Positions 7,873 through 55,039 of a stretch of DNA of 64,000 nt are shown here, in pieces. Below the pieces are notes generated by a model. The model did not search any database. It was not told the origin of the DNA and saw nothing but the letters and a program-made list of their open reading frames with translations. Every line of letters starts with the position of its first letter. The stretch's first letter is position 1. Origin of the DNA: a virus (taxonomy: Duplodnaviria > Caudoviricetes); IMG/VR virus record IMGVR_UViG_3300038345_000076, positions 1 through 64,000 of that record. One strand, written 5' to 3'. A program made the translations under genes and the position numbers.

Positions 7873-9045
7873 TTATCTGATGTGCTTCTTTATCTCTTCG
7901 GCAATCGTATCATCGAGTAATCGCGCATACGCCTGTTCCGTCTGCCTGATGCTCGAATGACCGAGAATCCTGCTAACGACACTGATAGGTACGCCTGCAT
8001 TAAGAAGTATATAGGCACACGAGCGACGGCCATCGTGACTTGTCATTTGCTTGTCAATCCCCGCTGCATCTGCTACAAGTTTCAGTTTGACGTTGTACTT
8101 TTGGTTTGGTAGTTTCGGGAGGTGGTACTCATATTTCTCCAAAATTGCCTTTGCCTTTGGTGTAAGGACGAAAGTGAACAGTACTCCAGTCTTTGAACGG
8201 TAGCCGCTGAATACAGAATAGTTATTGGCGTTAGTACACTGAGTGAAGTCGTAAGCCATAAGGTCAACGTATGACAGCCCCGTGAACACTTGGATCAGAA
8301 ACAAATCTCTTGCCTCAGACAGACTTTTTGTGGGCATTCCAGCATTTTCAATCTTCTCAATCTCTTTTTTTGTGAGAAACTTGTCTATCCTGGTGCTGCC
8401 TTTGTCGATCTTGATACGCTTGGTAGAGTAGGGGTTATCCTTAACATACCCGTCAACCATGGCATCGTTGATAAATACTTTGAGGTTCTTGTGCATTGAT
8501 CCGATGCTTGCCTGAGAATACTTTCGTGTTACCTTCTTTCCAAAGCGGTCTTTTTCTTCCCATGTGACAGTATGCAGGTATTCGTCCCATTTTCTGATGT
8601 TTGATTCAGTAATGTCTCTGAAGTATTGCATCTTTCCCCATTCCGTAAAACGGGATAAGAACACATGATAGGCTTTCTTGGTATAGTCAGACACCTGTTT
8701 TGCCTTCATTCTCTTGTGGATATAGTCTTCAAACGTGATATCCGTGTCTTTCTGCTTAATAAGTGATGGTATTGCGTTGAGGTCAATGTTCTCTGCATCT
8801 ACCATTTCTCCGATGATTTTAAGCGCACGTTTTCTTATCTTCATAAGCATGGCATTGTCTTCCTGTGAGCTGAGTGACTTGATGCTTTCGTGTGCATCGT
8901 ACCACTCTCCAGGAAAGCACTTAACGCCAGTAGTGATGAACTTCTGCTTACGGTTGAAAGTAATGCGCAGTTCAATGACACCCTTTTTTATATTGGATGC
9001 CAGGTGCTTGCGGTCAAATACAAATTTTATCTGAGGTATAATCAT
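7873..9045 (-). CDS. int: Phage integrase (Bacteroidetes-type tyrosine recombinase with arm-binding domain)
   Basis: N-terminal IELRITFNRKQKFITTG arm domain; FTGLSYVDL, HDGRR, LGHSS and catalytic Tyr (QAYA). Confidence 0.93.
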   Translation of the reverse strand: MIIPQIKFVFDRKHLASNIKKGVIELRITFNRKQKFITTGVKCFPGEWYDAHESIKSLSSQEDNAMLMKIRKRALKIIGEMVDAENIDLNAIPSLIKQKDTDITFEDYIHKRMKAKQVSDYTKKAYHVFLSRFTEWGKMQYFRDITESNIRKWDEYLHTVTWEEKDRFGKKVTRKYSQASIGSMHKNLKVFINDAMVDGYVKDNPYSTKRIKIDKGSTRIDKFLTKKEIEKIENAGMPTKSLSEARDLFLIQVFTGLSYVDLMAYDFTQCTNANNYSVFSGYRSKTGVLFTFVLTPKAKAILEKYEYHLPKLPNQKYNVKLKLVADAAGIDKQMTSHDGRRSCAYILLNAGVPISVVSRILGHSSIRQTEQAYARLLDDTIAEEIKKHIR

Positions 9046-18554: not shown

Positions 18555-18572
18555 ACATTACAGGAATAAAGT
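18555..18572 (+). repeat. Recombination site A1
   Basis: agtcACATTA-CAGGAA-TAAAGT; inverted partner is A2. Confidence 0.8.
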
Positions 18573-18576
18573 AGCG

Positions 18577-19593
18577 ATGGAAGTCAACAGAGTATATAAT
18601 GAAGACTGCCTTACTGGATTGAAGAAACTTCCAGACAACTGCATTGACTGCTGCGTGACATCGCCACCATATTACGCCCTGCGTGACTATGGCATGGATG
18701 AGCAAATAGGACTGGAGGAAACACCACAAGCGTACATCGACAGACTGACGGACGTGTTCATGAATGTGTACCGAGTGCTGAAACCTACGGGCACCTGCTG
18801 GCTCAACATTGGCGACAGTTACAATGGCAACAAGAAAGGCAACACCGAGACCAACAAGAACAAGCGAGTAGCCGAGAGCAACCATTTCGAGAAAAAGCTA
18901 TGGGACGGCGCAAAGCAAAAGGACTTAATCGGTATTCCCTGGATGTTGGCTTTCACGCTGCGAGCAAAAGGCTGGTATCTGCGACAGGACATCATTTGGC
19001 ACAAGCCTAACGCAATGCCAGAAAGCGTTACTGACAGGCTGACAAAGAGCCATGAGTATATTTTCCTTATGAGCAAAAGCAGCAAGTATTACTTCGACCA
19101 TGAGGCAATACAAGAAGTCGCCACGGGGTATGATGGAAGAAAAGACACCATGATGCACGGCTCTCCTAAGTATAACATTATTCCTGTAATGCCGCATGGA
19201 AAGCGTCAAGATCTTACAAAGAACGAGCATCAGCGGTGGCGTTTCAAGAACCTACAAGAAGATGGTCAGCAGCCAAACACCATGCACCTTCGCCGTGCTG
19301 AAGGACTTCCTGATAAGCAATACCCTATCAGGAACAAACGAGACGTGTGGTCTGTGAATACCAAACCAGACCATAACGCCCATTTCGCTGTCTATCCTGA
19401 AGAATTGATAAGACCTTGCATCCTTGCAGGTTGTCCGAAAGACGGTATCGTTCTTGATCCGTTCATGGGTAGTGGTACGACGGCGAGAGTAGCACGGCAA
19501 TATGGCAGGAACTTTATCGGCTACGAATTGAATCCAGAATACATCAAAATTATAGAGCGTAAAATTGTCGTTGAACAGGATATGTTTATCTGA
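18577..19593 (+). CDS. Beta-class amino-MTase (SPPY; N4-cytosine-like), currently ON
   Basis: CVTSPPYY near the N-terminus, LDPFMGSGTT near the C-terminus. Confidence 0.92.
   Translation: MEVNRVYNEDCLTGLKKLPDNCIDCCVTSPPYYALRDYGMDEQIGLEETPQAYIDRLTDVFMNVYRVLKPTGTCWLNIGDSYNGNKKGNTETNKNKRVAESNHFEKKLWDGAKQKDLIGIPWMLAFTLRAKGWYLRQDIIWHKPNAMPESVTDRLTKSHEYIFLMSKSSKYYFDHEAIQEVATGYDGRKDTMMHGSPKYNIIPVMPHGKRQDLTKNEHQRWRFKNLQEDGQQPNTMHLRRAEGLPDKQYPIRNKRDVWSVNTKPDHNAHFAVYPEELIRPCILAGCPKDGIVLDPFMGSGTTARVARQYGRNFIGYELNPEYIKIIERKIVVEQDMFI
19175..19192 (-). repeat. Recombination site A2 (intragenic)
   Basis: ACATTA-TTCCTG-TAATGC; shares CATTACAGGAATAA (14 bp) inverted with A1. Confidence 0.8.
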
Positions 19594-19594
19594 C

Positions 19595-19612
19595 ACATTA
19601 TCTTTGTAATGT
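19595..19612 (-). repeat. Recombination site B1
   Basis: ACATTA-TCTTTG-TAATGT. Confidence 0.88.
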
Positions 19613-19844
19613 CGCCCCAATTCTTTTCTGCACTATCAGGATGCAGCACTTTGTGGGCGATTACGGCAGGTTGCTTGTTGATGTCTGGGTTCGCATCTTC
19701 TTCTGGATCGAACTCAGCCCAACCTACCAACTCGTAATCGAAATCTGGATAAATCTCCCGTAACCTGTTGAGAGCCAATGCCTGTGAGCCATATCCGGCA
19801 CAAATCTCAAATAGCCTAAGTTTATTATTTCTATTGTACTTCAT
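19599..19844 (-). CDS. Inverted N-terminal 82 codons of a cytosine-C5 DNA methyltransferase (motifs I-III)
   Basis: LRLFEICAGYGSQ (motif I), ELVGWAEFD (II), NWGDITKI (III); antisense to the operon. Confidence 0.9.
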
Positions 19845-19849
19845 AAGTC

Positions 19850-19867
19850 ACATTACAAAGATAAAGT
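19850..19867 (+). repeat. Recombination site B2
   Basis: agtcACATTA-CAAAGA-TAAAGT; 15-bp perfect inverted repeat (ACATTACAAAGATAA) with B1. Confidence 0.88.
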
Positions 19868-20415
19868 GGCAGGATTTACCCGACTTTGACCTTCTGAGTT
19901 ATTCCACGCCTTGCCAGAGTATCAGCCAGGCAGGGTTGCAACATGGCTTTACTGAAGGCAGCGGTACGAGGTCGAGCATCATCTGGAATGTGCGAGACTG
20001 CGTAAAGGCTAAAAGACCAAAGTTTCTGATGTTAGAGAACGTGAAGGCAATGGTCAGCAGCAAGTATGTCGGATTGTTCAATGTCTGGCAGCGAGAATTG
20101 GAGAAGTTAGGATATGCCAATTTCGGTCAAGTGCTAAATGCTAAAGATTTTGGTGTTCCTCAGAATAGAGAGCGCATTTTTCTTATTAGCATAAGGATAG
20201 ACGATACAGAGCCGAAGTATTTCTTTCCAGAGCCGAGACCTCTGGAGGTGTGCCTCGCAGATGTCCTTGAAGAAGAGGTTGACGAGAAGTATTTCCTCAG
20301 TGACGAAATGCTTGCAAGGTTCTGTGAGAAGAGTCTGGAAGAAGAGAATGAAACTGTACCAGAATCGCAGGAAGATGGCGAAACCGACTTTGAAGACTTC
20401 TTTGTTGCTCAGTGA
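19852..20415 (+). CDS. Cytosine-C5 MTase catalytic part (motifs IV-VIII); lacks its start in this orientation
   Basis: YSTPCQSIS (IV), LMLENV (VI), GVPQNRERIF (VIII). Confidence 0.9.
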   Translation: MTKIKWQDLPDFDLLSYSTPCQSISQAGLQHGFTEGSGTRSSIIWNVRDCVKAKRPKFLMLENVKAMVSSKYVGLFNVWQRELEKLGYANFGQVLNAKDFGVPQNRERIFLISIRIDDTEPKYFFPEPRPLEVCLADVLEEEVDEKYFLSDEMLARFCEKSLEEENETVPESQEDGETDFEDFFVAQ

Positions 20416-20544
20416 CGATGTGATTGTGGCAGGACGTATCAGTTCGTCTCAAGACGGGATAGTTGTTATGGGGGGGGTATTTCCCCATGCCATACAGCAG
20501 GACACGGAAACTGCCCGAAAATTGTGGTCATTATCGAGAATTAA
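20348..20544 (+). CDS. TRD mini-gene M1 (frameshifted at G8; start uncertain)
   Basis: ...DDVIVAGRISSSQDGIVVM-(G tract)-GISPCHTAGHGNCPKIVVIIEN*. Confidence 0.6.
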
Positions 20545-20677
20545 GCCGCAGAATGTTTGTCAAGGTGGAGTTGCCTGTACTCTTAATACAAGATATGAAA
20601 ATGCGGCGATCAAAGACTATATCAGTTTGAGACACTATCCCCAAACTTGCGTGATGTATGTTTTTGAAACATTGTAA
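20522..20677 (+). CDS. TRD mini-gene M2
   Basis: ...RIKPQNVCQGGVACTLNTRYE...CVMYVFETL*. Confidence 0.6.
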   Translation: MWSLSRIKPQNVCQGGVACTLNTRYENAAIKDYISLRHYPQTCVMYVFETL

Positions 20678-20833
20678 ATTACCCCCCCCAATCGTCTTAT
20701 TGGACTTCCAACCACAGCAGATGGGATAGCACCGACGATTACAGCAGTCTATGAGACTACGGGGCCTGCAAATATGATAAGTGTAGCCCATTATCCGAAA
20801 ATGGGTATCGGAGTAATCTATGAAACAGAGTAA
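20664..20833 (+). CDS. TRD mini-gene M3 (frameshifted at C8)
   Basis: TTG-KHCKL-(C tract)-NRLIGLPTTADGIAPTITAVYE...GIGVIYETE*. Confidence 0.6.
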
Positions 20834-21011
20834 ACTAACTGGTGGCAAGCGATTCCAGAAATGGATTGAGAAAGGCGACCTTCCAAATGGGGGGGGGTAT
20901 TTTATCGACATTTACAATCAGATGTATAACAAGCAGGGAATCGCAGGTACTATACATACAAGAATCAACGATGGAAACTATTGGTGGGTCACACAGGTTG
21001 TTGAGACGTAA
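20820..21011 (+). CDS. TRD mini-gene M4 (G9, in frame)
   Basis: ...KQGIAGTIHTRI...WVTQVVET*. Confidence 0.65.
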   Translation: MKQSKLTGGKRFQKWIEKGDLPNGGGYFIDIYNQMYNKQGIAGTIHTRINDGNYWWVTQVVET

Positions 21012-21165
21012 TTTTGCCCCCCCCAGAATTTTACCATTGAATCCGATGCCAGACGGCACTTGCAGGACATTGAAAGCAGTTTACTATAAAACAGGCAGAA
21101 TCAATTTCCAATATCACAATGATTGGGGAACTACTGGAGTAGCAGTTGTGTATGAGACAGATTAG
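21001..21165 (+). CDS. TRD mini-gene M5 (C8, in frame)
   Basis: ...LNPMPDGTCRTLKAVYYK...GVAVVYETD*. Confidence 0.65.
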   Translation: MRRNFAPPRILPLNPMPDGTCRTLKAVYYKTGRINFQYHNDWGTTGVAVVYETD

Positions 21166-21307
21166 GAATATCTATTACGGGTGGTCGAGAAATGCCAAAG
21201 GTGAGATTGACAACTGGTACAAATGCGATATATCAAACTCTATCACAACTTTTGTCGGTGGTGGATGGAACACTTCACCCAAAGTAGCTGTAGTCTATGA
21301 AACGTAG
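21152..21307 (+). CDS. TRD mini-gene M6
   Basis: MRQIRNIYYGWSR...DISNSITTFVGGGWNTSPKVAVVYET*. Confidence 0.65.
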   Translation: MRQIRNIYYGWSRNAKGEIDNWYKCDISNSITTFVGGGWNTSPKVAVVYET

Positions 21308-21461
21308 GGACAAGGTGATACAGTGTGGCTATTTGTTCTTTACAGATAGCAATTCACAGGCATGGAGGGTATATGACAAGTACGGGATTTCACCAACACT
21401 TGATTGCTGTAGCGGTGGAAACAGACAGCCAAAGATCTTGGTTGCTTATGAGACGGAGTGA
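21297..21461 (+). CDS. TRD mini-gene M7
   Basis: MKRRDKVIQCG...RVYDKYGISPTLDCCSGGNRQPKILVAYETE*. Confidence 0.75.
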   Translation: MKRRDKVIQCGYLFFTDSNSQAWRVYDKYGISPTLDCCSGGNRQPKILVAYETE

Positions 21462-21603
21462 TAAGATTATTATTGTTGGAAATGTGTGGAATAGTAGGCA
21501 AAACGGCAGCGTATTGGACGTAAGAGGCATTTCGCACTGCATTACCATTGGTCAGCATTCAGGTACAGAACCTAAGATTAGAGTAGTCTATGAAAACGAT
21601 TAA
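21448..21603 (+). CDS. TRD mini-gene M8
   Basis: MRRSDKIIIVGN...VLDVRGISHCITIGQHSGTEPKIRVVYEND*. Confidence 0.7.
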   Translation: MRRSDKIIIVGNVWNSRQNGSVLDVRGISHCITIGQHSGTEPKIRVVYEND

Positions 21604-21754
21604 GGCTATTGGTTGTGCAATCCGAGGCCGTTCAAAAGGAGAATGGCATAATAGTGAACACAGGCAGATGCTTGAAATGAACTCAGACCGCTTCAGCAAT
21701 GCAGTCAGTACAGTTCAAAAGGATTTTATGGTAGCTATGCTTTATGAAACATGA
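21590..21754 (+). CDS. TRD mini-gene M9
   Basis: MKTIKAIGCAIRGR...QMLEMNSDRFSNAVSTVQKDFMVAMLYET*. Confidence 0.7.
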   Translation: MKTIKAIGCAIRGRSKGEWHNSEHRQMLEMNSDRFSNAVSTVQKDFMVAMLYET

Positions 21755-21890
21755 TTATATTGTTTTAGCTCTTGGAAATTGGAGCGATTGGCAGGATGAT
21801 AGAGTATTTGACACCGAAGGTATCAGCATTACCTTAGACACTAACTGTAGTAAGAGACCATTACTAAGGATTATAAATGAAACTGATTGA
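21744..21890 (+). CDS. TRD mini-gene M10
   Basis: MKHDYIVLALGNW...DRVFDTEGISITLDTNCSKRPLLRIINETD*. Confidence 0.7.
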   Translation: MKHDYIVLALGNWSDWQDDRVFDTEGISITLDTNCSKRPLLRIINETD

Positions 21891-22071
21891 TGTGCGACGT
21901 ATATCTCGTACAAGAACGGCAGAAGAGAGATTGAGGCGGCATTTGTACGGAGAGACGGGTGCAACCTTTTCAAAGGGCAAGTACATGACTTTGGGCGGTC
22001 ATGTGATGGGTACAATAACTACATTCATCAATAAGGATAATCTTGTTGCGGAAATTTATGATACTATCTGA
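21877..22071 (+). CDS. TRD mini-gene M11
   Basis: ...RTRTAEER...VMGTITTFINKDNLVAEIYDTI*. Confidence 0.65.
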   Translation: MKLIDVRRISRTRTAEERLRRHLYGETGATFSKGKYMTLGGHVMGTITTFINKDNLVAEIYDTI

Positions 22072-22201
22072 TGCTAAGAACGGAGCAAAACGGATGCGTG
22101 ATCACAAGATGGTATTTGAATGTGGTAATGAAAGTTTTTGCAATGCGCTGACACAAAATATAGATCATAGTTTAATAGTTTTACTATATGAAACAGAATA
22201 G
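22058..22201 (+). CDS. TRD mini-gene M12
   Basis: MILSDAKNG...SFCNALTQNIDHSLIVLLYETE*. Confidence 0.6.
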   Translation: MILSDAKNGAKRMRDHKMVFECGNESFCNALTQNIDHSLIVLLYETE

Positions 22202-22730
22202 AGTTTTTCACAGACAAGTTCGTGTTGTTTACAGGGCTTGCAGAAGACTTTACGGGAAAGAACGGACGCAGGATGAATGCCTAAAGTTATTTAAGATAAT
22301 CTTTCCTGAGTATTACAAAGCCAAAAATTCTAATGAGAAATACAAACAACTATCGGATGAATCTTATAATAAGTTGAATGCTTTGCTTTCAACGTGGATT
22401 CCAGAAGATGGTGCTTTGCATGATGTGATATGCTATACTCTCAATGAAGCAGATAGATGTATGTTACGTGAAGAGTTCTTGCAATTCTGTGAGGACATCA
22501 TGCCAGTTGTGATGCGTATAAGGAAACTTACACCGAGGGAGTGCTTTCGCTTGATGGGCGTTTCAGAGCCAGACATTGACAAGATGCTGAACAGCGGGAT
22601 ATCGAACAGTGCTTGCTATCGGCTTGCAGGCAATTCAATAGTAGTCGATGTAATGGTAGCTTTGTTTGATAAATTATTAGTCAATACGGAGGAAGAAAGA
22701 AAATTTGGAACTCAATTAACCCTTTTTTGA
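22188..22730 (+). CDS. Cytosine-C5 MTase C-terminal subunit (motifs IX-X)
   Basis: RIRKLTPRECFRLMG (IX), YRLAGNSIVVDV (X). Confidence 0.88.
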   Translation: MKQNRVFHRQVRVVYRACRRLYGKERTQDECLKLFKIIFPEYYKAKNSNEKYKQLSDESYNKLNALLSTWIPEDGALHDVICYTLNEADRCMLREEFLQFCEDIMPVVMRIRKLTPRECFRLMGVSEPDIDKMLNSGISNSACYRLAGNSIVVDVMVALFDKLLVNTEEERKFGTQLTLF

Positions 22731-29916: not shown

Positions 29917-29934
29917 ACATTATCGCTATAATGA
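29917..29934. repeat. Orphan recombination site E1
   Basis: ccACATTA-TCGCTA-TAATGA. Confidence 0.65.
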
Positions 29935-29950
29935 AACAAACTGAATTATT

Positions 29951-30274
29951 ATGAACAAAGAAGAGTATTTGAAAGCAGAGAAAGCCATTAAGGAAGAGTT
30001 TGAAGGAAAAAGAAAGCAACTCGCAAGAGAGTTTGCCTCTTCAAACAATCCTGTAAAGATAGGTGATATTATTACAGACCACTACAAGACTATTCGTGTA
30101 GAGAAGTTGTTGTGGGGTCATAACTTTGGCACTCCATTCTCTTGTATGTTTTATCGCGGTACTCGATTGACTAAGAATGGTCAACCTGCGAAGCGTGAGG
30201 CTGAAGATAACAGAGTGGCACAAACGGATATTAGAGAGATTAACGGCAGACCTTACAAATACGAGTTGAAGTAA
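29951..30274 (+). CDS. Hypothetical protein flanked by sites E1 and D1
   Basis: 107-aa ORF. Confidence 0.65.
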   Translation: MNKEEYLKAEKAIKEEFEGKRKQLAREFASSNNPVKIGDIITDHYKTIRVEKLLWGHNFGTPFSCMFYRGTRLTKNGQPAKREAEDNRVAQTDIREINGRPYKYELK

Positions 30275-30302: not shown

Positions 30303-30320
30303 ACATTATTCGTGTAATGT
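30303..30320 (-). repeat. Recombination site C1
   Basis: ACATTA-TTCGTG-TAATGTaact. Confidence 0.85.
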
Positions 30321-30325
30321 AACTT

Positions 30326-30994
30326 ATGAAACCAATTAGTGACGTTTATAATATAGATTGTCTGGAGTATATGAAAACACAGCCAGACAAGCGATTCGAT
30401 ATAGCCATTGTTGACCCGCCTTACGGACTGCCTGCAAAAAGTACACACGGGCAAGGTAAACTGAAGAACAGAAGCCTTAACAGGGGAAATATACACCAAT
30501 GGGATTTTAGACCACCAAAGGAATACTTTGAAGAGTTGTTCAGAGTATCGAAGAATCAGATAATTTGGGGTGGCAACTACTTTGAACTGCCTCCGTGTCG
30601 GTGTTTTGTCTGTTGGGATAAAGAACAAGTGTGGGAGAATTTCAGCCAATGCGAATTTGCTTGGACTTCATTCGACAAACCTGCAAAGATGATAAGGCTT
30701 GCTAATCGTGGTGGTGATGCAGACAAAGCAAAGTTCCATCCAACAGCAAAGAACGTGAAACTCTATGAGTATCTGCTGAAGACGTTTGCCAACAAAGGAG
30801 ATTTTATCTTTGACTCTCATTTGGGTAGTGGACCGTCAAGGATTGCAGCCTATAAGTTGGGATTCGATTTCGTTGGCTGTGAGATAGATGCAGATTATTA
30901 TCGTCTCGCTGATGAACGATTCAAGCGTGAATGTCTTGGAGAGTACACAATGAAAGACGGGAGAGTTGCAAAGCAGTTAGACCTTTTTGGATAA
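30326..30994 (+). CDS. Beta-class adenine-N6-like DNA MTase, currently ON
   Basis: IAIVDPPYG, QIIWGGNYF, FHPTAK, DSHLGSG. Confidence 0.92.
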   Translation: MKPISDVYNIDCLEYMKTQPDKRFDIAIVDPPYGLPAKSTHGQGKLKNRSLNRGNIHQWDFRPPKEYFEELFRVSKNQIIWGGNYFELPPCRCFVCWDKEQVWENFSQCEFAWTSFDKPAKMIRLANRGGDADKAKFHPTAKNVKLYEYLLKTFANKGDFIFDSHLGSGPSRIAAYKLGFDFVGCEIDADYYRLADERFKRECLGEYTMKDGRVAKQLDLFG

Positions 30995-35551: not shown

Positions 35552-35590
35552 GCAGGGAGTGGCGATCGGGCTGCTCCCTGCGTTTTTTTT
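35552..35590 (+). terminator. Intrinsic terminator ending the rightward operon
   Basis: GCAGGGAGTGGC-loop-GCTGCTCCCTGC followed by T8. Confidence 0.75.
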
Positions 35591-36428
35591 AGTGGTTGAA
35601 GAAATCCCTTGCATCATCACCAATGTTGTTGATGTCAACACAGACGTAGTGCTTGCTCGTAGTCTGGGAATTTGTGTGTCCTGCGAGTTTGGCAATGATC
35701 TCAACGGGTACACCACGGACTGCAAGGGCTGTGACGTAAGAGCGACGGCTGCTGTGCATGGTAATCCATTGATATTTGGGCTTGGTCTGCATACGCCCGT
35801 TACAGAAGAGTGTTATTTCCTCCGTAAATCCGAGTTTCTTGCAGATGCGCTGGATGGTACGGTTGACTACGCTTCGGTCAACTTCTTTTGTCGGATTCAT
35901 CTTTAGGTACTTTACAAGTCGTGCGTGAAGCGGTTGCTCAACGGCTACTTTCGTTTTCTTGCTGACGTATGAAAGCGTTTCGCCATGTACGTTGTCTGTT
36001 GACATGGTTCGGCAGTCGCTTGAACGTGCGCCGGAGAAAGCACCACGCATGAAAAGAATCTTGACATTCATTTCTGTCTCGCTCTTCGGCTTGTATTCGT
36101 CGAATAGGATAAGTTCTTCTTCCGTCAGGCAGCAGTGCTGAGACGGAATGACCTTTACCTTCAGAGCCTTGGCATAACGCATGGTTGGCAGTTCAACTTC
36201 TTCGCATACGTTGTTAAGGAATGCCTTGATGATGGAGCAATAGACCTGTGCAGAGTTCTGTGCGAGACGTTGGAGCATCAATTCCCGTACTTTGTTGAGG
36301 TTGCTCAGTGTGAGGTCTTTCCACTGGACTTCCTTTACTCCGATGGCTTCACGCATGAATCGGAGAATCTGGATTCTGCCCGGATTGCTCCGTTCAAATT
36401 CCTGTTCAAATGATAAAACTTTGTTCAT
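35589..36428 (-). CDS. Tyrosine recombinase without arm-binding domain (invertase/Xer-like candidate)
   Basis: Likely start MNKVLSF (279 aa); SGARSSD (R), KKT (K), HSSRR, LAGH, KHY. Confidence 0.88.
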   Translation of the reverse strand: MNKVLSFEQEFERSNPGRIQILRFMREAIGVKEVQWKDLTLSNLNKVRELMLQRLAQNSAQVYCSIIKAFLNNVCEEVELPTMRYAKALKVKVIPSQHCCLTEEELILFDEYKPKSETEMNVKILFMRGAFSGARSSDCRTMSTDNVHGETLSYVSKKTKVAVEQPLHARLVKYLKMNPTKEVDRSVVNRTIQRICKKLGFTEEITLFCNGRMQTKPKYQWITMHSSRRSYVTALAVRGVPVEIIAKLAGHTNSQTTSKHYVCVDINNIGDDARDFFNH

Positions 36429-36586
36429 ATTGACTTTTAATTTAACTTGTTCGTAAATAGTGAGCGCACTGCCATGTTGCTGACTGTGCGCCTGTCTAAC
36501 CAAAAAATAATTAATTATGATTACTATATTATAGCAATATACGGGACAAAGGCGGTTATCTGTATCTATAGATAGTCGCCTTTGTG

Positions 36587-37786
36587 TCAAGATACCCTGT
36601 ATGGAAATATGCAGAGGTCAGAAAAACCACTAAAGAATTTTCTAACGTCGTCTGTTGCGGGCTGTTGTTCTGCCTGTATTCTCAAAATTTTCTGACGGCA
36701 GTCAGCATGAATGCTGCCGATGTCGTTGCACTGTCTTATCACCTCCTGAGTGCTGACATAAGCGCATTGAACGCGGGTTATCTCTGCACCAGAGAAGTAA
36801 AGCATATCGCCACAGCCTGTAAGTTTCTCGGCACCTATCTGGTCTATGACCACACGGCTGTCCGTTCCCGTCGTGGTGCGGAATGCAATACGTGTCGGGA
36901 AGTTTGCCTTGATGTTACCCGTAACGATGGTTGCAGACGGTCGCTGGGTGGAGATTACGAGGTGCATCCCAACGGCACGGGCTTTCTGTGCGAGTCGGCA
37001 GATGTAATATTCGATATTCCGTCCGTACTGGCGATCCATTACAAGGTCGCCGTACTCGTCGATGACAATGACGTAATACTCCATCGTCTTTTCGCTTACA
37101 TCGTTGTACTCCTTGATGTTTCTTGCGCCAACCTCGTTGAGCATGGTGTAACGCTTTTCCATGAGGCGACAAAGCGCATCGAGCATGGTCTGAGCATGAG
37201 CCGCCTCAGTTATGATTGGTGGCATACCAAGCATCTGCGTGATGTATGGTCGTGCTATCGAGGTGTATGCTGACAGTTCGACTTTCTTTGGGTCGATTAG
37301 CACTAACTTCAACTCTTCTGGTGTCTTCTTATGCAAGAGCGACATGAGCATAACGTTAAGTCCAACAGACTTTCCTTGCCCTGTAGCACCTGCAACGAGA
37401 AGATGCGGCATTTCGGCAAGGTCGGCCATGAAGATTTCATTAGTCACGGTGCGTCCGATGGCTAACGGAAGAGCCATATCAGATGTAAGATATTCCTGGG
37501 ATTCAAGAATATCTGAGAGTGGCACGATTTCACGCTGTTTGTTCGGAATCTCGATTCCTACGCAACCATCGTACATCGGTGCAATGATGCGGACGGACGG
37601 GACGCGGAGAGCGGCAGCGATTTCGTTCTTGATGCCCGTGATGCGAGAGATACGCATGCCGAGCATTGGACGGAACTTGTAGAGCGTGACGTTTGTACCA
37701 CGCAGTTCCTCGAAGTCGTAGGTCTGTATCTTGTAGGACAGCAGTACGGACTTGAGGAAGTCGGATTGTGATTGTTGTTCGTTCAT
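36587..37786 (-). CDS. ftsK: FtsK/SpoIIIE-like DNA translocase motor (no membrane domain, no evident gamma domain)
   Basis: SVRIIAP..GCVGIEIPN (alpha domain), MPHLLVAGATGQGKS, VIVIDEYGDL, RLAQKARAVGMHL, GAEKLTGCGDMLY. Confidence 0.92.
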   Translation of the reverse strand: MNEQQSQSDFLKSVLLSYKIQTYDFEELRGTNVTLYKFRPMLGMRISRITGIKNEIAAALRVPSVRIIAPMYDGCVGIEIPNKQREIVPLSDILESQEYLTSDMALPLAIGRTVTNEIFMADLAEMPHLLVAGATGQGKSVGLNVMLMSLLHKKTPEELKLVLIDPKKVELSAYTSIARPYITQMLGMPPIITEAAHAQTMLDALCRLMEKRYTMLNEVGARNIKEYNDVSEKTMEYYVIVIDEYGDLVMDRQYGRNIEYYICRLAQKARAVGMHLVISTQRPSATIVTGNIKANFPTRIAFRTTTGTDSRVVIDQIGAEKLTGCGDMLYFSGAEITRVQCAYVSTQEVIRQCNDIGSIHADCRQKILRIQAEQQPATDDVRKFFSGFSDLCIFPYRVS

Positions 37787-53560: not shown

Positions 53561-55039
53561 ATGGCGAAAAAGGGTGAAAAATCGTGCATTAAGGACGTTT
53601 TACAGGCTGAGATTGGCAGATATTCGGGTCAATTACAGTCATGTATTGACAAGGGATCGTTGCTGAGAGCCTATCAGACCCGTCGCAGGAGCGAACGCCT
53701 TTATGCCTATCACTCGATACTCCGTGATGCCTGTTGCAGTTGTTTCCGAGGTACATCTATGAGTAATGACGGCAAGAAGTGTGTTGTCTGGGGATTTAAT
53801 GGTAAGTATTGGACTCCGTTATCCCCTGTTGTCTTCCGTGACAGCGTAGGTCAGGCATTGATAGCCGCTGCTGGAGCAGGTGATTTCGTTGTCAAGGGTG
53901 ACTGGATAGAGAAGCAGAATACGTTATTGCAGAGTGCATACGCAGGTGTATGCGTATCACCCTTGGAGAAGAACCCTGCTGTTGTCGGTTTCAGGAATGG
54001 TGTATGGGATTTCACTGATATTGAGAATCCCGTCTATCACTCGTTTACGGACATGATGCCTGTTACCGATTTATTGGGTTATGATTATGATCCTACGGCA
54101 TCATGTAAGATGTGGCAGTCGTTCCTAAGTATGATGCTAAACCAGAAAGACATCTTGAAGTTGCAGAAGTACCTTGGTCTTGGCTGTGTCAATCGTCGTT
54201 TGATGTCAAATGTCGTTGAGGACACCTTGTGGCTCATTGGCAGTGGTGCGAATGGTAAGACCACCATTGAGGATGTAGTCAGAGCCGTTTATGGCTATGA
54301 TAATGTCAGCGAGGCTTCGATGGGTGAACTGTTAGACAGGAATCAGATCAGCCGTATGCTGACGATGAGCAATATCGACGGCAAGATATTCAATATCTGT
54401 AGTGAGGTTGACATGAGTGATATCAGCAGGGGCAGTGATGCCTTCAAGCGTCTGTGCAGCGGTGAGCCTCAGAATGCGAGAGGTATTGGTGAGAATGTCC
54501 GCAGGATATATGACATACCGTTTCTGATATTCTCGATGAACCAGCGTCCCGTGAATAAGCGAATGGATGCCGCCTTCAGACGCAGGATAGTTGAGATTGT
54601 CTTCAATCAGTCTATAAGAGAGGAAGACATGGATGCTGGTTTGGGGGATAAGTTGAAGAAAGAATTGCCGGGTATCAGGAACTGGATGATAGAGGGTTAC
54701 AAGATGCTTGTCAGAGACGGATTCCGCTTTGACCATTGTAATTCCGAGGACTATATGGAGTACAATGACCAGTTCTTTGACATCTTCGCCCGTCACGACG
54801 GATTACGTGCGAGTGCGTGGGCGGGTCGTGGTGAGAAGGCTCAGTTGGTAAGTTTTGCCACTCTCTACGACAAATACGTTGATTTCTGCAAGCGCAAAGG
54901 CTATGGTCAGGAAACTCCGTCTGAGAAATCTTTGTCCCAGGATTTGAAGCGTCTGAACTTCCGCAAGGTGCGCAAGGCTGCAGGTGTATTCTACGAGGTA
55001 TATTGTGAGAACGAACTTGAATATGCAGTGAAGTTATGA
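53561..55039 (+). CDS. D5/P4-family SF3 helicase (primase-associated)
   Basis: VGFRNGVWD, YDPTASC.MW..FL, GSGANGKTT, FKRLCSGE, AFRRRI. Confidence 0.88.
   Translation: MAKKGEKSCIKDVLQAEIGRYSGQLQSCIDKGSLLRAYQTRRRSERLYAYHSILRDACCSCFRGTSMSNDGKKCVVWGFNGKYWTPLSPVVFRDSVGQALIAAAGAGDFVVKGDWIEKQNTLLQSAYAGVCVSPLEKNPAVVGFRNGVWDFTDIENPVYHSFTDMMPVTDLLGYDYDPTASCKMWQSFLSMMLNQKDILKLQKYLGLGCVNRRLMSNVVEDTLWLIGSGANGKTTIEDVVRAVYGYDNVSEASMGELLDRNQISRMLTMSNIDGKIFNICSEVDMSDISRGSDAFKRLCSGEPQNARGIGENVRRIYDIPFLIFSMNQRPVNKRMDAAFRRRIVEIVFNQSIREEDMDAGLGDKLKKELPGIRNWMIEGYKMLVRDGFRFDHCNSEDYMEYNDQFFDIFARHDGLRASAWAGRGEKAQLVSFATLYDKYVDFCKRKGYGQETPSEKSLSQDLKRLNFRKVRKAAGVFYEVYCENELEYAVKL

Follow-up and report, generated by a model that had tools for sequence, protein, structure and literature searches.

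A phage cytosine-C5 DNA methyltransferase gene with an invertible 5' segment found in both orientations: a probable site-specific inversion switch

Introduction

Intragenic and partial intergenic invertons are known from gut Bacteroidales (Chanin et al., bioRxiv 10.1101/2023.03.11.532203; Nature 2024, as cited in PMC12068327). We analyzed a window of 64 kb, the first part of an IMG/VR virus record of 105,850 b (rated complete by CheckV), and describe here a locus in it, called B, that resembles these invertons. In both cases the short inverted repeats are situated inside a coding sequence or at its margin, flipping cuts the product short or recodes it, each orientation occurs naturally (in gut communities for the Bacteroidales invertons), and the gene for the invertase is frequently not a neighbor. 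Unlike those invertons, B is carried by a phage, controls a DNA methyltransferase (MTase), has its inner site within a conserved motif of the catalytic domain, and is one of several switches that have common arms and private spacers. The words 'methyltransferase' and 'methylase' are absent from the main text of 10.1101/2023.03.11.532203.

Phase variation of methylation by DNA inversion is known for the hsdS genes of Type I restriction-modification (R-M) systems, the 'epigenetic invertons' (PMC7672463, PMC4948785, PMC12068327). The likeness to the switch proposed for B is that inversions by tyrosine recombinases alter the methylation pattern of a population. However, the hsdS systems shuffle alternative HsdS specificity half-genes of a cellular R-M system, whereas B acts on just one segment, the N-terminal catalytic part of a C5 enzyme, which is turned ON or OFF, and neither an alternative cassette nor a restriction partner was seen at B. 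A further parallel is offered by the pdif modules of Acinetobacter plasmids, genes bounded by Xer-type sites and found in varied contexts, which use the host XerC/D and sites like the chromosomal dif (PMC6449649). The phage likewise has genes with sites on both flanks, in different contexts, but two of its pairs, A and B, extend into genes instead of delimiting modules, and its site motif was not enriched in the 201 genomes of one phylum that were scanned.

Heterospecific variants of the Cre/lox and FLP/FRT systems have palindromic arms and an asymmetric spacer that must be identical in the two partners, such that sites with different spacers form switches that do not cross. Compared with these, the phage sites are natural, make up at least three pairs in one genome, and have shorter arms (6 to 11 bp). 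With respect to the enzyme, the multispecific C5 MTases of Bacillus phages (SPR, phi3T) carry several target-recognition domains (TRDs) between motifs VIII and IX, and M.AquI, a two-subunit C5 MTase, illustrates that such an enzyme can work as two polypeptides. A 484-aa chain encoded by one relative of the window (L009) resembles the SPR and phi3T enzymes in having several TRDs in one chain. In contrast to all of these, the enzyme in the window is apparently divided between two subunits, N-terminal and C-terminal, and many TRD mini-ORFs, and the N-terminal subunit is under an inversion switch. No inversion switch in a phage C5 MTase is described in a 2026 review of prokaryotic MTases (PMC13076061), in a survey of phage structural variants (PMC11323893), or in what our full-text literature searches returned.

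Results and discussion

A C5 methyltransferase gene with its 5' end on the opposite strand

Between 14.6 and 23.3 kb the plus strand of the window carries a replication and modification operon. An N-terminal ORF and its neighbor look RecT-like and SSB-like, as judged from their translations only, and the helicase is DnaB according to the Pfam matches of relatives. The helicase gene is followed by an N6/N4 MTase gene (18577-19593, PF01555) and the C5 MTase locus, after which comes a gene for an HNH endonuclease. One close homolog, P0031, is named as coming from a Prevotella MAG, and from this single name we infer that the host of the phage is probably Prevotella; we take the habitat to be gut or rumen. 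Megablast against deposited phages gave no match. An exact scan of species genomes for the site pattern returned chance matches only, none of them with an MTase, and neither a prophage copy nor a host was found in that way. Scanning for promoters and terminators around B gave no more than background.

The features of B and of related loci are collected in Table 1. B is bounded by inverted arms of 23 nt (19590-19612 and 19850-19872) that are 91% complementary, and these contain two 18-bp sites in inverted orientation, B1 and B2, of the pattern ACATTA-N6-TAATGT with the spacer CAAAGA. A first-pass annotation of the window, made from the letters alone, had placed codons 1-82 of a C5 MTase on the minus strand and motifs IV-VIII on the plus strand. 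This arrangement was borne out: from 19844 down to 19599, 82 residues run from a start codon through FEICAGYGSQ to NWGDITKI, and the plus strand from 19849, which reads HITKIKWQDLPDFDLLSYSTPCQ... (the same stretch is also given as ITKIKWQDLPDFDLLSYSTPCQ), takes up the match to PF00145.

Table 1. Positions of sites, gene segments and recombinase genes in the window
Feature	Position	Strand	Remarks
Site A1	18555-18572		Spacer CAGGAA; upstream of N6/N4 MTase gene 18577-19593
Site A2	19175-19192		Spacer TTCCTG (reverse complement of CAGGAA); inside the N6/N4 MTase gene
Site B1, outer recombination site	19595-19612		ACATTA-TCTTTG-TAATGT
Site B2, inner recombination site	19850-19867		ACATTA-CAAAGA-TAAAGT; D-I-T-K-I-K when read in the gene
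Invertible interior, 237 bp	19613-19849		OFF orientation in the window; alignment reversed exactly between the sites in all ON relatives
C5 MTase codons 1-82, motifs I-III	19599-19844	-	FEICAGYGSQ ... GDITKI; intact ORF, 96-98% protein identity to ON relatives
Fixed part of the N-terminal subunit gene	19849-20415	+	Motifs IV PCQ, VI ENV, VIII QNRER; PF00145 positions 50-215, E 8e-40; stop after ...FFVAQ
Array of TRD-sized mini-ORFs	20415-22201	+	Cycling frames; between the two MTase subunit genes
C-terminal subunit gene	22188-22730	+	Motif IX RKLTPRECFRLMG, motif X GNSIVV; PF00145 positions 257-322; separate 180-181-aa gene in relatives
Site C1	30303-30320		Spacer TTCGTG; 5 nt before DPPY MTase gene 30326-30994
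Site C2	30994-31011		Spacer CACGAA; at the DPPY MTase stop codon
Integrase with arm-binding domain, less likely invertase	7873-9045	-	PF00589
Xer-like tyrosine recombinase, candidate invertase	35589-36590	-	PF00589; true start probably ~55 codons in; beside FtsK-like gene 36587-37786

When 19613-19849 was inverted in silico, an ORF of 265 aa was obtained, as the annotation had predicted. It aligned with a protein that occurs naturally in the ON form (P0042) over residues 1-265 with 96.2% identity and no gaps, and end to end with the homologs from L087 (88.6%), L003 (82%) and the site-less L004 (71%). The N-terminal 82 residues alone gave no Pfam match even at E 10, and the continuity of the domain was therefore demonstrated through natural ON ORFs, whose single match to PF00145 covers positions 2-214 without a break (E 8e-46). 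Motifs I-VIII, with FxxxAGxG, PCQ, ENV and QNRER all present, are contiguous and in order in one polypeptide only after the flip. A flipped product that failed to align continuously with C5 MTases would have refuted the annotation, and this was not the outcome. By these matches the gene is that of the N-terminal subunit of a C5 cytosine DNA methyltransferase (PF00145) with motifs I-VIII; its ability to form m5C is inferred.

Read in the gene, B2 encodes G-D-I-T-K-I, a stretch that we take to be motif III of C5 MTases. The annotation had assigned DITKI to the repeat, which is right, but had put the repeat at 15 bp; the site is 18 bp long and the arms extend to as many as 23 nt. Relatives without sites (including L004 and L006-L011) likewise encode GD(I/M)(T/S)KI, and B2 is therefore laid over a conserved coding motif, the double use of the sequence that had been proposed. 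After the in silico flip the ORF begins 5 nt past B1, in the context TAATGTGACTT-ATG-AAG. The near identity of this context to that of the MTase gene behind site C1 (TAATGTAACTT-ATG-AAA at 30315-30331), also pointed out beforehand, is real. In the ON form B1 occupies the 24-nt gap between the stop codon of the upstream MTase gene (19591-19593) and the ATG. Because B1 then lies upstream of the ATG, B is a partial intergenic inverton in the terms of Chanin et al.; of the intragenic inversion that had been claimed, the inversion stands and the strictly intragenic position does not.

Both orientations occur in relatives

Relatives were gathered along three routes: viral contigs were searched by protein, viral as well as metagenome contigs were searched for the B2 pattern, and the OFF fragment and its ON counterparts were compared with a protein collection. 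About 20 OFF loci (the window, L002, L135-L141, L151-L152 and L158-L167) and about 24 ON loci (L003, L005, L085, L087, L091, L093, L098, L101, L103 and L142-L157) were verified in independent assemblies from IMG/VR, ENA and Logan, covering many samples, with breakpoints exactly at the sites. Positions 19594-19870 of the window are reversed relative to every ON relative, and both flanks are direct. Since OFF loci were found by searching with the OFF fragment, ratios of ON to OFF are meaningless.

The two forms can be very close to each other. The ON protein P0146 is 100% identical to the OFF fragment P0159 over its first 80 aa and to the OFF core P0152 over its last 179 aa, and a single cluster at 90% identity contains forms of both 270-271 and 184-185 aa. 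In the ON/OFF pairs that come nearest to each other, the fixed part is 98-99% identical, or identity holds at the protein level only. The P0146 and P0159 loci have flanks with 88-96% identity, which does not show that the two come from the same strain, and no sample overlap was found among the ON and OFF loci that were fetched. P0159 is indexed in 48 blocks of the protein collection. In all OFF copies the 82-codon N-terminal ORF is intact, with 96-100% protein identity to ON alleles.

A maximum likelihood tree of the fixed part (20 distinct rows) gave about 6 changes between ON and OFF (5-7 in bootstrap replicates) versus 6.5 for shuffled labels, and its well-supported branches force at least 3 changes. 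The ON and OFF states are thus interspersed on the gene tree. The definition of an inverton, a segment that is bounded by inverted repeats and found in both orientations with breakpoints at the repeats, is met across assemblies, without read-level data from within one sample. Reversibility within a lineage and the rate of switching are inferred.

The B sites belong to a family with pair-specific spacers

Among ten aligned loci B1 is identical in nine and has 2 mismatches in the other (L087), and the 45 nt upstream of it are unrelated, different genes preceding it. Because B1 is kept despite these unrelated flanks, this non-coding site is, as judged from the alignment, under selection. More distant relatives (L004 and L006-L011) are without both sites and are fixed in the ON form.

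The pattern ACATTAY-N4-RTAA gave 14 strand-hits in the 105,850-b genome compared with 0.6 in shuffled sequences, and 10 sites have at most one mismatch to ACATTA-N6-TAATGT where fewer than 1 would be expected. Six of the 10 form three inverted pairs, each with a private spacer: A (CAGGAA), B (CAAAGA) and C (CACGAA). The sites of pair A enclose roughly the first 200 codons of the N6/N4 MTase gene, and the A segment is inverted in L151, L152, L162 and L165. Pair C brackets the entire DPPY MTase gene as a cassette that is inverted relative to its flanks in L126 and L128. Both pairs accordingly occur in either orientation among relatives, and three combinations of A and B states were observed. The relatives L126-L128 have in addition a pair E, which brackets a gene with a PAPS-reductase domain (PF01507), and in L126 and L127 a nested outer pair D encloses pair C.

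When the spacer of one site changes, that of its partner changes with it. Pair A has CAGGTA/TACCTG in L103, pair C has CACAAA/TTTGTG in L127, and pair E has TCTTCC/GGAAGA in L127 versus TTTTCC/GGAAAA in L126 and L128. Conserved palindromic arms around asymmetric, pair-specific and co-varying spacers are a hallmark of the core sites of tyrosine recombinases (Cre/lox, FLP/FRT, Xer/dif). No arrangement that would require recombination between pairs was seen. A shufflon of the Rci type, in which many equivalent sites recombine in any inverted combination, does not describe the family, each pair having its private spacer.

The segments between the sites can be better conserved than their surroundings. 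Between L153 and L158-L167 the invertible B segment (268 nt) is 97-99% identical in all ten loci, and the invertible A segment (663 nt) is 97.6-97.7% identical to that of L153 where it is inverted (L162 and L165), whereas the fixed flanks are 88-94% identical in most loci. Exchange of segments at the sites or stronger purifying selection could account for this difference.

Several further arrangements of sites were noted. Nested and adjacent pairs lie at L126:2436-4117, L127:470-2178 and L128:2479-4128, and a second DPPY-type MTase abuts the cluster. In the genome of the window, the sites at 29917, 30274, 52760 and 53219 have no partner by spacer; the former two flank a small ORF (29951-30274), and the latter two, each followed by GTGACTTTTT, lie in an AT-rich gap of 930 bp on the upstream side of a D5-like primase-helicase gene (53561-55039). 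The N6/N4 MTase of some relatives has an insertion of ~180 aa without Pfam match, which brings it to 517 aa (L003:1524-3077 and L147:1423-2976). The longer A segment of L003 was considered as an alternative N-terminal cassette; this was rejected, the locus being a single 517-aa ORF with the ~180-aa insertion.

Candidate recombinases

The genome encodes three recombinases of the PF00589 family and no serine recombinase (PF00239). None adjoins B, the nearest genes being 10.5 and 15.7 kb away, and the third PF00589 gene is near 90 kb. The Xer-like gene overlaps a gene for an FtsK/SpoIIIE-like motor that has alpha and motor domains and no match to the gamma domain (35589-37786 for the two together). 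This gene pair is kept in related phages with and without switch sites. A homolog with 50% identity to the Xer-like recombinase shares a 10-kb contig with six sites; overall, homologs at 44-50% identity occur in phages with and without sites (44-47% in the site-less ones), and the family is very broad. Homologs of the integrase are found in all relatives, including those without sites, and in the site-bearing L005 and L085 they are only 30% identical, which makes the integrase an unlikely invertase.

Co-occurrence of recombinases and sites does not discriminate among the PF00589 candidates. Since homologs of both nearby recombinases occur in site-less relatives, no enzyme is singled out; the Xer-like gene is ranked first with low confidence, and the class as well as the identity of the recombinase is inferred. 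The possibility that the site is a host chromosomal dif, of Xer-dif or pdif type, found no support at the phylum level: of 201 genomes sampled from one phylum, that of a record titled 'uncultured Bacteroidetes bacterium', 29 contain the exact motif, compared with ~55 for a reversed control, and the motif is thus not enriched. The phage recombinases score far below the equivalog cut-offs for XerC and XerD.

An inversion switch and its alternatives

We put the probability at roughly 0.85 that B1 and B2 form a conservative site-specific inversion switch of the tyrosine-recombinase type that turns the phage C5 MTase subunit ON and OFF. Each site consists of short inverted arms (ACATTA/TAATGT, with one arm extending to AAGTCACATTA) around the asymmetric 6-bp spacer CAAAGA. 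Recombination between B1 and B2 would flip the 237-bp interior, carrying with it the start codon and codons 1-77 of the C5 MTase subunit. In the ON form the gene comes directly behind the upstream gene on the same strand and provides motifs I-VIII in 265 aa; in the OFF form, that of the window, the SAM-binding half faces away and no catalytic subunit can form. The phage can in this manner probably switch C5 DNA modification on and off, with the enzyme activity itself inferred. The same family of sites, through its private spacers, is proposed to switch two N6/N4 MTase genes independently, the match of spacers within a pair and the mismatch between pairs keeping the switches separate. A likely benefit, also inferred, would be bet-hedging of phage or lysogen methylation against variable host restriction and methylation-dependent restriction.

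If reads had been misjoined across a short inverted repeat, the OFF form would be an assembly artefact and the true genome always ON. The window does come from a metagenome-derived virus record with no read mapping behind it, but the repeat is only 18-23 bp, and the OFF arrangement recurs in ~20 loci from different pipelines and samples; P0159, an OFF fragment, is indexed in 48 collection blocks. Because the loci stem from IMG/VR, ENA and Logan assemblies of many samples, an artefact, which the first-pass annotation had named as the other outcome that would refute it, can be practically set aside at the level of assemblies. It is also conceivable that rare, one-off inversions killed the gene in some lineages and that no switching goes on today. 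Such a fossil rearrangement would be consistent with the lack of an adjacent invertase gene and with the fact that assemblies alone do not show a within-sample mixture. We nevertheless hold it to be quite improbable: OFF and ON are interspersed on the tree, every OFF copy retains an intact 82-codon ORF with near-identity to ON alleles, both sites (the non-coding B1 included) are kept across divergent relatives behind unrelated upstream sequence, and the spacers of the sister switches co-vary.

That no recombinase could be assigned leaves room for general homologous recombination or replication slippage at the short inverted repeat, without a dedicated enzyme. Against this stand the length of the repeat, 18 bp being short for exchange of the RecA type, the shared palindromic arms with pair-specific, co-varying asymmetric spacers that are the signature of recombinase core sites, and the presence of ten such sites in one genome where fewer than one is expected; the explanation is accordingly very hard to sustain. 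An account that keeps the recombinase but changes its purpose is that the sites serve mainly for cassette exchange or module mobility between co-infecting phages, in the manner of pdif modules or recombinase-mediated cassette exchange, and that inversion is a by-product rather than a regulated switch. The high identity of the A and B segments relative to their flanks (L153 versus L158-L167), the occurrence of the B1-segment-B2 module behind unrelated upstream genes in different phages, and the whole-gene modules bounded by inverted sites in L126-L128 are all in line with it. The B segment, however, amounts to no more than a fragment of a gene and has no use in the absence of the fixed part, no other cassette has been seen there, and exchange and switching are not mutually exclusive. 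We regard exchange as the main role of the sites as unlikely.

A wider version of the inversion-switch reading, about which we are evenly divided, is a combinatorial switchboard. One recombinase and one family of sites with orthogonal spacers would flip each DNA-modification gene independently, giving 2^n states per lineage; the genes would encode the N-terminal subunit of the C5 MTase and two N6/N4 MTases, joined in relatives by the PAPS-reductase-domain protein. B would then be the master of ~10 free-standing TRD proteins of a split multispecific C5 enzyme, and segments would be exchangeable between phages.

Gut hosts are known to vary restriction specificity by DNA inversion, and B would be the mirror image on the side of the phage, which would change its own methylation, be it protective or exposing, by inverting a portion of an MTase gene. 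Coding-sequence invertons would thereby be extended to phages and to a Type II-like C5 enzyme. B2 is a recombination site overlaid on a conserved motif of the catalytic domain, and together with its sister switches B would provide a natural example of site-specific recombination with orthogonal spacers. The element is common, being present in dozens of assemblies from many samples, and annotation pipelines as well as methylome-based host assignment will for that reason meet MTases that look 'broken' but would merely be switched off.

An apparently split enzyme with an array of putative target-recognition ORFs

The ON product, of 265 aa in the window, has its stop behind motif VIII, at ...FFVAQ, and the same holds for all close relatives. 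A TRD and motifs IX-X in the same polypeptide, as in a canonical single-chain enzyme, were thus not found, and the enzyme appears to be split. Just 3' of the stop of the N-terminal subunit gene lies a 123-nt stretch (20414-20536) that is missing in L003, L085, L093, L098, L101 and L147 and that contains a G8 tract (20470-20477).

Between the two subunit genes there are ~10-12 TRD-sized ORFs, each ending in ...(V/I)YE(T/N)x-stop and each next one in the +1 frame. Such arrays were found in the window, at L087:9313-10559 and at L101:584-2212. The mini-ORFs may yield free proteins, or programmed +1 frameshifting may link them. The counterpart in L009 (1783-3237) has homologous TRDs fused in frame in one MTase chain of 484 aa, and from this comparison of sequences the split array is probably the derived form. 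If the split-enzyme reading is right, B would act as the master ON/OFF control for all m5C specificities of the locus.

A three-chain structure model was built from P0042, which stood in for the N-terminal subunit, together with the C-terminal subunit of the window and the mini-protein encoded at 21297-21461. In the model the TRD mini-protein sat between the two subunits, flanked by motif VIII of the N-terminal one and motif IX of the C-terminal one, with a score of 0.83, the best control scoring 0.00. Of 80 solved complexes 58 reach that mark, as do 2 of 110 mismatched pairs, counts that are only a rough guide for a model with our own alignments and three chains. The runs agreed in at least 78% of contacts, with a pLDDT of at least 69 for the partner. 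Resemblance to solved single-chain C5 MTases may be the reason for the pass. With this qualification, a separate motif IX-X subunit and small target-recognition proteins appear to be the working partners of the N-terminal subunit, an assembly that is inferred from the model without assay data. Some C5 N-terminal subunits (among P0061, P0062, P0069, P0137, P0139 and P0143) are 616-637 aa long and have intein or LAGLIDADG Pfam domains.
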